This document shows, piece after piece, positions 34,232-35,827 of a stretch of DNA of 64,000 nucleotides. The notes beneath the pieces were generated by a model. The model was not told the DNA's origin. It made no database searches and saw only the letters and a list, made by a program, of their open reading frames with translations. Position 1 is the first letter of the stretch. Every line of letters starts with the position of its first letter. Source of the DNA: Ignavibacteria bacterium (lineage in GTDB: Bacteria; Bacteroidota; Ignavibacteria; Tepidaquicellales; OLB5). The position numbers and the translations under genes are program-made. The stretch is taken from the NCBI GenBank assembly GCA_020852705.1, contig JADZAP010000030.1, positions 3,991 through 67,990 on the forward strand, written 5' to 3'.

Positions 34232-34960
34232 ATGCCAATTTCAAATCTGAACATATACAAAACTCCCGAAGAGCTTACAAAAATTTTTGCAGAGGTATTA
34301 AAGAATAAGTTTGATGAATTGCTGAAGAACAATCAGAACATTTCTATTGCAATTTCAGGAGGCAATACACCAAAGGCATTATTTGAAATTCTTGCTTCAG
34401 AATACAAATATAGTATAAACTGGAATCAGATAAATTTTTATTGGGTTGATGAAAGATGTGCGGAACCAGATGATGAACAAAGCAATTTTGGCAACGCGTA
34501 TAATCTTTTGTTCAGTAAAATTGATATATCACCTTCATCTATAAACAGAATTAAAGGTGAAGCATCAGCAAAAGCGGAAGCAAAAAGATATTCTGAGCTA
34601 GTTAAGATGAAGGTTAAGCAAAAAAACTCACTCCCCTGTTTTGATATTATACTGCTTGGTATGGGCAATGACGGTCATACAGCTTCAATTTTTCCAAATC
34701 AAATGAAACTGCTTGAATCACCAGAAATTTATACTGTTTCAACAGCACCTAAGGGCGGACTAAAGAGAATAACAATGACAGGTAAAATAATAAATAATTC
34801 AGATACAGTATATTTTTTAGTAAGCGGTTCTGATAAAGCAAGTGTTTTTAACACAATCCAAAATAATGAAGCTGATGCCAATAAATATCCGGCTGCATAT
34901 ATAAAACCTGAGGGCGGTGAGCTATATTGGTATGTTGATTCAAAAGCAGCGGGTGGATGA
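34232..34960 (+). CDS. pgl: 6-phosphogluconolactonase
   Basis: Contains ISGGNTPK, WVDERC, LLGMGNDGHTASIFP. I chose the ATG at 34232 rather than the track's TTG at 34211, which overlaps the zwf stop. Confidence 0.88.
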   Translation: MPISNLNIYKTPEELTKIFAEVLKNKFDELLKNNQNISIAISGGNTPKALFEILASEYKYSINWNQINFYWVDERCAEPDDEQSNFGNAYNLLFSKIDISPSSINRIKGEASAKAEAKRYSELVKMKVKQKNSLPCFDIILLGMGNDGHTASIFPNQMKLLESPEIYTVSTAPKGGLKRITMTGKIINNSDTVYFLVSGSDKASVFNTIQNNEADANKYPAAYIKPEGGELYWYVDSKAAGG

Positions 34961-35005
34961 GCGATATTTTATAAAATTCCGTTTAAAAAAGAAACCGAAA
35001 TACAG

Positions 35006-35031
35006 AAGCAGGTTAATTACCTGCTTTTTTT
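35006..35031 (+). terminator. rho-independent terminator of the gnd-zwf-pgl operon
   Basis: An 8-bp stem aagcaggt/acctgctt with a 5-nt loop is followed by a run of 7 T. Confidence 0.75.
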
Positions 35032-35069
35032 GTACACCCGGAAGGAGTCGAACCCTCAACCTTCTGATC
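35028..35069. repeat. 42-bp direct repeat, copy A (3' half of tRNA-Arg(ACG) plus 5 nt of 3' flank)
   Basis: ttttgtacacccggaaggagtcgaaccctcaaccttctgatc is identical at all 42 positions to 35406-35447. Confidence 0.95.
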
Positions 35070-35133
35070 TCCGCCTTCGGCGGATAAACTCCGTCAGATG
35101 CTCCCTGCCTGCCGAAGGCAGGTATCCGGTTGC
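35033..35133 (-). other. tRNA-like structure / rearranged second tRNA-Arg copy (101 nt)
   Basis: Minus strand reads GCAACCG-GATA-[CCTGCC-TTCG-GGCAGG]-CAGG-GAGC-A-TCTGA-CGGAGTTTA[TCCGCC-GAA-GGCGGA]GA-TCAGA-AGGTT-GAGGG-TTCGACT-CCTTC-CGGGTGT-A. The acceptor stem pairs at 6 of 7 positions, the anticodon stem and T arm are intact, the D arm is replaced by a UUCG hairpin, and the anticodon loop is 26 nt. Confidence 0.55.
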
Positions 35134-35405
35134 GCTAATCGATAATTTTTTTTAGAAACTCCCGTCCTTCACCGGATTTTAAATAAAGCTCGCGTTTTCT
35201 AGCAGCCTCAAAAGTATCAAACTCTTCTATTTGAACTAATTTCCATGGAATATAAGCTTTCGTTGACTTGGTTTTACCGGCATTATGTTCCGTCAATCGC
35301 CGTTTGATGTTATCCGTAACTCCTTTATACAACCTTCCATCAATTGTACTTTTAATGACATAAGTATAAAATTTTTTCAAACGTTGTATGGATTTTCTGT
35401 GATTG
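35070..35405 (-). mobile_element. candidate 336-bp mini-cassette (GIY-YIG ORF plus structured 3' region) inserted in the anticodon loop of tRNA-Arg(ACG)
   Basis: It is bounded by the perfect 42-bp repeats and carries a single nuclease ORF. No integrase or transposase is present. See findings. Confidence 0.5.
35135..35380 (-). CDS. stand-alone GIY-YIG nuclease-domain protein (81 aa, YhbQ/COG2827-like)
   Basis: (M)KKFYTYVIKSTIDGRLYKGVTDNIKRRLTEHNAGKTKSTKAYIPWKLVQIEEFDTFEAARKRELYLKSGEGREFLKKIID carries the GIY (YTYVI), YIG (LYKGVT), Arg (RRLTEH) and Glu (RE) elements. I placed the start at the TTG at 35380, because the track's upstream extension (35381-35437) is tRNA sequence. Confidence 0.8.
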   Translation of the reverse strand: MKKFYTYVIKSTIDGRLYKGVTDNIKRRLTEHNAGKTKSTKAYIPWKLVQIEEFDTFEAARKRELYLKSGEGREFLKKIID

Positions 35406-35484
<79 letters not shown>

Positions 35485-35827
35485 ATAAAATATATTATTA
35501 AATTAAAATAAATTACCAAATATTATATTATTTTAGTAATTTTGTGCAATTTACCAATATTTTATTAGTTATTCAATTGAAAATAATTGGATAAATTCTG
35601 ATAAATAAATTGTTATATAATTTGCCGTAAAAATTTAAAATTTTGAAAAATGAAAAATTATGGTCCCCGAGATCTTATGAAAAAAATATGCGTCGTAAAT
35701 ATAATGCTAATTTTTTAAATTTTGATTAATAAATATTTTAGAATAAAAAATGCTGTAAATACAAATATTGGTATTGAAAAAATTATTTTGATAATAACTA
35801 CGCATTACATTTATTTTATCCTTAAAA

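Follow-up and report, generated by a model that had tools for sequence, protein, structure and literature searches.

The stretch of DNA analyzed here, 64,000 nucleotides (64 kb) from an Ignavibacteria bacterium (contig JADZAP010000030.1, positions 3,991 to 67,990) and referred to throughout as the window, contains a small gene for a putative GIY-YIG nuclease that is followed directly by a 101-nt, tRNA-like segment. A first-pass annotation of the window had described this segment as a tRNA-like RNA with two hairpins, and had read it either as a decayed tRNA copy or as a functional tRNA mimic. We think it likely that the segment is a disabled spare copy of tRNA-Arg(ACG), and that it forms part of a selfish cassette, very small in size, that resides within tRNA genes. 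The pseudo-tRNA is probably a by-product of this cassette and not a mimic built for the purpose. Four sets of observations carry this reading: the architecture of the locus recurs in related genomes, relatives hold both an empty and a filled version of the same site, the class of palindrome is co-inherited with the clade of the protein, and the palindromes are conserved in sequence.

A palindrome-split copy of tRNA-Arg(ACG) in the window

All positions given below are those of the whole window and lie on the minus strand unless stated. Read on that strand, the locus (around 35006-35557) consists of a promoter-like site, a tRNA-Arg(ACG), a 29-nt spacer, the 81-amino-acid (aa) GIY-YIG open reading frame (ORF), the 101-nt segment, and a terminator-like hairpin. 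The tRNA-Arg(ACG) at 35410-35484 is the intact, functional copy: it is called by ARAGORN, scores 63.2 bits against the Rfam tRNA model, and has the cloverleaf as its minimum free energy (MFE) structure. The ORF (35135-35380) uses a TTG start and a TAG stop and matches Pfam PF01541 (E=8e-16). The segment behind it is a crippled duplicate of the tRNA (pseudo-tRNA, 35033-35137), as indicated by its alignment to the intact copy, by a direct repeat, and by the recurrence of the arrangement in relatives. The direct repeat, found by a repeat search, comprises 48 nt (35022-35069) that cover tRNA positions ~38-76 plus 6 nt of 3' flank and are 96% identical to the partner at 35400-35447. The two repeats are spaced 378 bp apart, and the 81-aa ORF is the only gene between them.

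As the first-pass annotation had claimed, the similarity to tRNA-Arg(ACG) extends beyond the 3' repeat. The 59 nt at the 5' side of the segment align to the tRNA with a local score of 25.2, compared with 14.0 ± 3.0 for shuffled sequences, and only 4 of 2000 shuffles equal or exceed the real score. GAGC-A-TCTGA is found in the segment, and GCAACCG, which had been proposed as the acceptor 5' strand, pairs at 6 of 7 positions with CGGGUGU in a stem predicted with a probability of 0.7-0.99. The coordinates of the segment hold as well, with its start at 35133 lying 1 nt past the TAG stop codon (35137-35135). There is a second way to read this 5' end. The sequence 'TAG CGCAACCGGATA' aligns contiguously, at 12 of 15 positions, to 'TAG CTTAACTGGATA' at tRNA positions 8-21, so GCAACCG may be D-arm sequence instead of an acceptor strand. 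The stop codon may then be the tRNA's own U8-A9-G10, and the pseudo-tRNA would begin with this TAG and not at 35133; on sequence comparison, both readings are precedented among relatives. If GCAACCG represents D-arm positions 12-18, it departs from the intact tRNA at three bases (T12G, T13C, and T17C; 35115-35137), and each change raises the complementarity to the 3' acceptor strand. These changes may come from chance, from acceptor-strand descent combined with an 11-nt deletion, or from selection.

Two GC-rich palindromes, both detected in a palindrome scan of the window and given without strand, interrupt the copy. HP1 (CCTGCCTTCGGCAGGCAGG, class I; 35104-35122) sits between tRNA positions 21 and 22, preceded by GGATA and followed by GAGC, and is a variant of a 20-nt perfect palindrome known from relatives. 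The first hairpin of the earlier description is therefore present, but its real sequence is CCUGCC-UUC-GGCAGG followed by CAGG, one G fewer than in the UUCG version, and it is an insertion at 21/22 rather than a replacement of the D arm. HP2 (TCCGCCGAAGGCGGA, class III; 35070-35084) lies within a 24-nt segment (35069-35092, also without strand) that stands in place of the anticodon-loop bases TACGG. The loop between UCUGA and UCAGA is 26 nt long, holds UCCGCC-GAA-GGCGGA, and has no anticodon, just as originally described. The window has a GC content of 33%, and only three perfect GC-rich palindromes with a stem of at least 6 are found in its 64 kb, two of which are HP1 and HP2. The window holds no second GIY-YIG ORF and no further palindromes of the HP1/HP2 type.

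Related loci, an empty site, and the palindromes

We compared the window with 80 loci that encode homologues of the protein (39-66% identity), for a total of 81 loci and 239 kb, in which individual loci are cited by L number. The homologues are hosted by Bacteroidota, Ignavibacteria/Melioribacteraceae, Chlorobiota, Patescibacteria, Omnitrophota, Elusimicrobia, Planctomycetia, and others. An intact tRNA on the same strand lies within 100 nt of the ORF in 72 of the 81 loci, directly downstream in 51 and directly upstream in 21. Most of these are tRNA-Arg (CCT, TCG, ACG, or TCT), and Met, Asn, Glu, Asp, Ala, Pro, Thr, Leu, and Ser tRNAs also occur. At about 20 loci the ORF has no stop codon of its own and ends at the TAG formed by U8-A9-G10 of the tRNA. 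A second tRNA-derived copy is present across the ORF in 64 of the 81 loci. Palindromic GC-rich inserts are found in at least 39 of these 64 second copies, clustering at 21/22 in the D loop (22 loci), at 26/27, in the anticodon loop, and at 56/57 in the T loop. That such specific palindromes recur at matching tRNA positions across dozens of unrelated genomes bears out the earlier argument that the hairpins are not the product of random decay.

The two loci with the nearest proteins also sit at tRNA-Arg(ACG). In both, tRNA positions 1-21, the 20-mer palindrome, positions 22-26, and a spacer precede the ORF, and the intact tRNA with its terminator follows it. The window is the mirror image of this layout, with its intact copy upstream and its crippled copy downstream. 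Both arrangements occur within the window protein's own clade, and the palindromes occupy different loop positions from locus to locus, so that palindrome insertion into the spare copy looks recurrent and not like a single inherited event. The spacer between tRNA and ORF in the window (35381-35409) contains no terminator-like site and starts with CAAAACAA; in the closest relative, L081, this motif also stands shortly before the ORF. Several loci are tandem arrays of two to three or more units (L034:1136-2133, L056, L063, and L084:840-1510), and L084, one of the two nearest-protein loci, consists of two identical units. In these arrays, every non-terminal tRNA copy carries a palindrome and the last copy alone is intact. 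Two-domain proteins such as P0121 (214 aa) arise because ORFs can read through into the next unit.

An empty site is found in Pedobacter sp. W3I1 (L124/L125), in which tRNA-Arg(CCT) is uninterrupted and neither the ORF nor a palindrome is present. Its neighboring genes and promoter sequence are the same as in seven cassette-bearing Pedobacter-type loci (L055/56/60/63/65/128/129), which hold from one unit to three or more (in rising order L055/60/65, then L056, then L063). The filled allele equals the empty allele plus a block at position 21/22 that consists of a palindrome, tRNA 22-47 with C34T, the ORF, and tRNA 1-21. Comparison of the empty site with the filled orthologous loci thus identifies the cassette as an insertion, and this presence/absence polymorphism at an otherwise conserved site is seen for the relatives only. 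In another strain, Pedobacter sp. AK013 (L126:615-1667), the orthologous SDR gene adjoins a phage-integrase-like gene, no tRNA-Arg(CCT) is called, and the neighborhood is rearranged.

The commonest insert is the perfect 20-mer CCTGCCTGCCGGCAGGCAGG, with 23 exact occurrences in 19 loci within the 239 kb, in hosts from the Bacteroidota, Omnitrophota, Planctomycetia, and Patescibacteria. Most of 47 sites matched by a regular expression in the related loci show the constant context (G)GATA-CCTGCCTGCCGGCAGGCAGG-GA, and HP1 of the window is at the same position. HP2 has counterparts too. In genomes of the candidate phyla radiation (CPR), tRNA-Glu copies carry the module CCGCCGAAGGCGG in their anticodon loop (L073, with related versions in L067 and L074), and TCCGCC-N-GGCGGA is also present in L057 and L079. 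The class of palindrome tracks the protein clade and not the type of tRNA: protein identity is 56% within a class vs 46% between classes, and one protein clade bears the same palindrome at Arg, Met, and Glu tRNAs. In a distant clade (L047, L069, L070, L072, and L078), copies of tRNA-Ala, tRNA-Pro, and tRNA-Asp have another, oriented hairpin, CGTCCCGA-N-TCGGGAAG, in place of their anticodon or T arm.

The palindromes are conserved by sequence and not by compensatory change. In class I, 95.6% of cells are paired, a double substitution occurs once, and the score is equaled or exceeded in 196 of 500 shuffles, so no covariation of the hairpin is seen across the relatives. Imperfect stems were too few for a bias of G·U over A·C mismatches to point to the functional strand. 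The canonical palindrome is self-complementary through its center and has no unpaired bases.

The 20-mer is also found in IMG/VR viral contigs, at 42 exact sites in 35 stretches (L089-L123; for example, L097:8396, L091:1660, and L107:3391) that lie mostly in GC-rich contexts, most of them with no tRNA nearby. Direct repeats of at least 7 nt (with at most 1 mismatch) flank 7 of 40 viral sites, compared with 0.3 expected, and are 7-14 nt long, while the other 33 have none; no target-site duplication is seen at the tRNA sites. In phage-like contigs, the solo 20-mer looks like a dispersed mini-element. One viral contig has a tRNA-Met (L113:2239-2330) with the 20-mer in its variable region, between 'CACGAGG' and the T stem. 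ARAGORN still calls this tRNA-Met, with the palindrome read as a long extra arm, and the insertion may be tolerated.

The protein is a bare GIY-YIG catalytic domain. Pfam PF01541 matches residues 4-71 with 58.5 bits (cut-off, 22.6 bits), and the 81 aa include no separate DNA-binding domain. Residues Y7, Y18, R28, H32, N33, and E64, which are invariant in the homologue alignment, are all kept in the window protein. The only sequence matches in the PDB are UPF0213 proteins (1ywl, E=2.3e-5; 1zg2, E=3.2e-4), and judging by these matches the ORF encodes a GIY-YIG domain of the small, stand-alone UPF0213 type (EF2693/BH0048 type). A search of NCBIfam returns no model match for the ORF, which NCBI annotates as a GIY-YIG nuclease family protein of an Ignavibacteria metagenome-assembled genome. 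The family comprises 7109 cluster representatives at E ≤ 1e-3; the closest relative of the window protein is 71% identical to it, and the two nearest are about 70% identical. The C-terminal tails of the homologues are translated tRNA 5' ends.

RNA structure and rival explanations

The first-pass annotation had itself named folding, conservation, and covariation as the tests of a functional structure. By the criteria of Rfam and ARAGORN, the segment is not a tRNA. The Rfam tRNA model (RF00005) scores 16.8 bits over 35033-35133 (E=1.9), below its gathering score of 29, and ARAGORN does not call the segment, in which a 19-nt palindrome cuts through the D arm and the long anticodon loop offers no anticodon. 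When all Rfam families were searched (E ≤ 10 for the region, gathering thresholds for the whole window), tRNA alone was matched, with no intron, ribozyme, or known motif. A tRNA with an intron, or a group I intron, was considered and rejected, as a complete tRNA-Arg(ACG) lies 378 nt upstream and nothing intron-like scored.

The cloverleaf-like fold that had been proposed fares poorly in folding, at -32.5 kcal/mol against an MFE of -39.5 kcal/mol, a difference of 7 kcal/mol. Folded in isolation, HP1 and HP2 are each stable as local hairpins (-11.2 and -9.7 kcal/mol, respectively). Within the segment their pair probabilities are 0.03 and 0.24, and folding is dominated over both local hairpins by an 11-bp helix between HP1 and HP2 (p~0.75). 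The folding z-score of the segment is -1.66. The two palindromes are complementary to each other in that CUGCCUUCGGC pairs with GCCGAAGGCGG over 11 bp (35070-35122). The acceptor and T-arm pairing claimed for the segment is recovered in one part only: the acceptor-like stem is predicted with the high probability given above, but the T arm, which is intact in sequence, pairs in its canonical form with a probability of at most 0.04. Nor is the structure kept in other copies of the cassette, where the spare copy can be full-length or as short as about 26 nt and often lacks its 3' half altogether or has a T loop split by a palindrome. With no conservation, no covariation, and neither the T arm nor the hairpins recovered by folding, the earlier proposal of a functional tRNA mimic or RNase P/Z processing signal finds no support.

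We therefore regard it as unlikely that an acceptor/T-arm minihelix of the segment is recognized by RNase P, RNase Z, or the CCA enzyme and so defines or stabilizes the 3' end of the nuclease mRNA. Such a role would be in keeping with a tRNA or tRNA-derived sequence almost always following the ORF directly in this family, with the acceptor-like stem and intact T-arm sequence of the window, and, if the 5' end is D-arm sequence, with three differences that all favor pairing to the acceptor strand. Beyond the sub-threshold Rfam score and the folding results, what speaks against it is that most loci have their spare copy upstream of the ORF and without the 3' half, and that in other loci with an upstream tRNA (L009, L017, L026, L044, L045, and L052) the T loop of the downstream remnant is often split by a palindrome. 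It is similarly improbable that the palindromes work in the RNA transcribed from the cassette, for example by shielding it as stem-loops, by serving as RNase III sites, or by regulating translation of the nuclease, with the pseudo-tRNA as a mere carrier. They do fall within the transcribed sequence ahead of or behind the ORF and are stable hairpins on their own, but a palindrome that continues through its center is needless for an RNA hairpin, and the sequence is conserved with no compensatory change. Their distance to the start codon varies, they are found on either side of the ORF, and the 20-mer occurs alone in unrelated phage contexts.

The gene itself could instead be a domesticated host gene, for example an Ssn-like nuclease acting on single-stranded DNA (ssDNA) that controls recombination or transformation at tRNA loci, with the tRNA duplicates as collateral rearrangements from its cuts. 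Neisseria Ssn has been proposed to be domesticated and to modulate transformation (PMC11893778), the T4 nuclease SegB cuts at tRNA genes and is reported to promote segmental amplification (PMC13096335), and tandem arrays are present in L034, L056, L063, and L084. Against this stand the presence/absence polymorphism at an orthologous locus, the finding of a single protein clade at many tRNA genes and across phyla, and a variable copy number. This pattern is typical of selfish spread, and we hold domestication to be quite unlikely. We give very little credence to the idea that the segment is an ordinary remnant, either a decayed tandem tRNA duplicate or the att-site duplicate of an integrase-type island, with hairpins that are chance or local repeats. 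A direct repeat of a tRNA 3' end is the classic signature of integration at a tRNA gene; the 378-bp unit between the repeats, however, has no integrase, and the hairpins make up two of just three palindromes of this kind in the 64 kb and match, exactly or almost exactly, those that dozens of genomes carry at the corresponding tRNA positions. The reading that accommodates these observations best remains a disabled spare tRNA copy within a selfish cassette.

Known systems and a possible mechanism

The closest known analogues of the nuclease-palindrome element are Ssn with its NTS repeats in Neisseria and SegB of phage T4. Ssn is a 94-aa single-domain GIY-YIG protein whose gene is flanked by hairpin repeats, and its binding to the hairpin is restricted to ssDNA, with cleavage a few nucleotides upstream (Chenal et al. 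2025, PMC11893778); its authors remarked on the insertion sequence (IS)-like architecture of the system. Both Ssn and the window protein are tiny, stand-alone GIY-YIG proteins (94 and 81 aa) with no DNA-binding domain, and both genes have GC-rich inverted-repeat hairpins on their flanks, which vary together with the protein lineage and are also found away from the gene. With 81 aa and a GIY-YIG domain only, we rated the window protein as falling within the single-domain size class of the Ssn family (cd10448; ~90-100 aa). The palindromes of the window family differ in that they have other sequences, are often perfect and loopless, and are embedded at loop positions of tRNA copies, whereas the Ssn paper makes no mention of tRNA (PMC11893778). 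The window protein also differs in matching UPF0213 structures. The oriented hairpin of the distant clade loosely resembles NTS (CGTC..CCCG..CGGGAA) and does not match the published Ssn recognition motif (SRM). By analogy, the cassette may work like Ssn; we do not claim that it is identical with Ssn.

SegB is a free-standing GIY-YIG homing endonuclease encoded in a tRNA gene cluster, and its site contains the conserved TpsiC stem-loop motif of tRNA (PMC2330249); it is also reported to drive segmental amplification (PMC13096335). Its likeness to the cassette lies in a GIY-YIG gene that is found among tRNA genes and drives its own inheritance, and in an amplification that parallels the tandem arrays of the window family. 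SegB is a larger protein with a separate DNA-binding region, and the window protein likewise differs from classical homing endonucleases in having no such domain. In addition, SegB is a phage protein whose gene has tRNA genes on either side and is not placed inside a duplicated tRNA, and no palindromes or hairpin-split pseudo-tRNAs are described for it.

The cassette consists of an ~80-aa single-domain GIY-YIG gene placed between two copies or part-copies of the host tRNA. One tRNA copy is kept intact, so that the cell keeps its tRNA, and the other is interrupted by short GC-rich palindromes at D-loop position 21/22, at 26/27, in the anticodon loop, or at T-loop position 56/57. These palindromes travel with the nuclease lineage. 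The hairpin binding of Ssn and the TpsiC-containing site of SegB motivate a hypothetical mechanism at the level of DNA, in which the palindromes would act as the cognate hairpin or symmetric sites of the nuclease, by analogy with Ssn/NTS. Single-stranded loops of tRNA-gene DNA would be the place of cutting and insertion, and the pseudo-tRNA would have no job as a tRNA mimic. As no terminator lies between tRNA and ORF in the window, the ORF may be transcribed from the tRNA promoter and use the tRNA terminator, in which case tRNA, ORF, and pseudo-tRNA would form one transcription unit. The cassette may move by homing, in which the tRNA would provide the homology arms for double-strand-break repair, by recombination through a circular form, or by a single-strand route, and the sequence does not discriminate among these. 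The promoter-like site upstream of the intact tRNA (TTGGTA-16-TAAAAT, 35530-35557) is weakly supported, coming from a consensus scan only and showing no enrichment relative to shuffles. The terminator-like hairpin with its T-rich tail (35006-35026) directly follows the pseudo-tRNA and is the sole terminator-like site in 34900-35700.

Several points weigh against the selfish-cassette reading or parts of it. The absence of unpaired bases at the center of the canonical palindrome is more in keeping with a symmetric site in double-stranded DNA (dsDNA), or with an inverted duplication as its origin, than with a simple hairpin in ssDNA. All but one of the 42 viral 20-mer sites have no GIY-YIG gene within 600 nt, the exception being one typical cassette (L120); with 41 solo sites, the link between nuclease and palindrome could be indirect. 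The Ssn SRM motif, HGTCWYN(0-2)YYVSBRHN(0-5)WNVSBRGN(0-2)RNCYNB, has no matches in the window and the 81 loci, and shuffles give 0-2. The nuclease activity, an ssDNA or dsDNA substrate, and the tie to the palindromes are all putative, and what is said here of the function of nuclease and palindromes is drawn from sequence. A search of metagenome contigs for the neighboring 6-phosphogluconolactonase gene gave two distant loci with no tRNA, and no empty site for the window locus. With no such site and a closest protein only 71% identical, the history of the window copy is inferred from its relatives. In Allomuricauda sp. CP2A (L002:1750-1840), a full-length tRNA-Arg(TCG) copy with a palindrome in its D loop follows the ORF. 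Within 1.5 kb there is no call of an intact tRNA, and the copy upstream seems to have decayed, which raises the question of where the functional tRNA is. The window copy may also retain a residual role as RNA, given its intact T-arm sequence and the acceptor-like stem predicted by folding.

It is possible, and we put this forward only tentatively, that the loci represent an undescribed and very widespread kind of minimal mobile element. An ~80-aa GIY-YIG gene would colonize tRNA genes by part-duplication, and perfect GC-rich palindromes of 15-20 bp would be planted in loop positions and would also spread alone into the genomes of bacteria and phages. The nuclease would use the palindrome as its DNA address, and the conserved tRNA would offer both a safe landing site and portable homology arms. 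In open-access papers and bioRxiv, we found no description of GIY-YIG cassettes in duplicated tRNA genes, nor of the palindrome CCTGCCTGCCGGCAGGCAGG. If the proposal is true, thousands of small "GIY-YIG nuclease family protein" genes beside tRNAs would belong not to the host but to a compact selfish system that restores each tRNA that it enters. Many of the odd tRNA fragments and mis-called tRNAs in genomes of Bacteroidota, Ignavibacteria, CPR, and others would then be accounted for, and the cassette would extend the pairing of a tiny GIY-YIG protein with a DNA hairpin, as in Ssn/NTS, to a new protein branch with new and extremely conserved palindromes. The palindromes and nucleases would be candidates for sequence- or structure-specific nuclease tools, and the cassette a model for target finding by a nuclease that has no DNA-binding domain. 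For the window itself, a comparative explanation would take the place of the attractive but unsupported idea of an engineered tRNA mimic.

Other known systems share single features with the cassette. Genomic islands and prophages integrate into tRNA genes and duplicate the 3' end of the tRNA. As in the cassette, one junction rebuilds an intact tRNA and a partial copy forms a direct repeat at the other end; the cassette differs in having no integrase, in measuring only ~0.3 kb, in often duplicating the 5' part, and in a spare copy that is systematically interrupted by element-specific palindromes. MALAT1 mascRNA and plant viral TLS are tRNA-like processing signals at RNA 3' ends, which are conserved and fold well. 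A tRNA-shaped element directly after a longer RNA could likewise recruit RNase P/Z, but the fold of the window segment is neither recovered nor conserved and shows no covariation. Fragments of tRNA genes have been discussed before (10.1101/2022.07.05.498093), and palindromic GC clusters are described as GC42 in yeast mitochondria (PMC4478555, citing Yin et al. 1981 among earlier reports) and as RHEs in sponges (PMC2800124). The mitochondrial GC clusters are also short GC-rich palindromes in AT-rich genomes that seem mobile, sometimes lie beside tRNA genes, and merge into double hairpins. The 1981 report by Yin and colleagues is said to concern GC-rich palindromes flanking Neurospora mitochondrial tRNA genes. 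These clusters differ from the palindromes of the cassette in being organellar, in having no dedicated nuclease gene identified, and in not occupying defined cloverleaf loop positions of duplicated tRNA genes.

In its many dispersed, near-identical copies (23 in bacterial loci and 42 viral sites), the 20-mer resembles palindromic mini mobile elements of the MITE or GC-cluster type. REP/BIME with RAYT transposases and IS200/IS605, which transposes as a single strand guided by hairpins, also combine a small nuclease gene with short palindromic repeats, many of them solo copies, and with recognition of DNA hairpins (PMC11893778). They differ in using HUH/Y1 transposase chemistry rather than GIY-YIG, and in neither residing in tRNA genes nor regenerating a tRNA. 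An older survey lists prokaryotic Slx1-like GIY-YIG domains fused to a TrmH-like tRNA Gm18 (D-loop) methyltransferase (PMC1564403), a further hint at a connection between small GIY-YIG domains and tRNA D loops.

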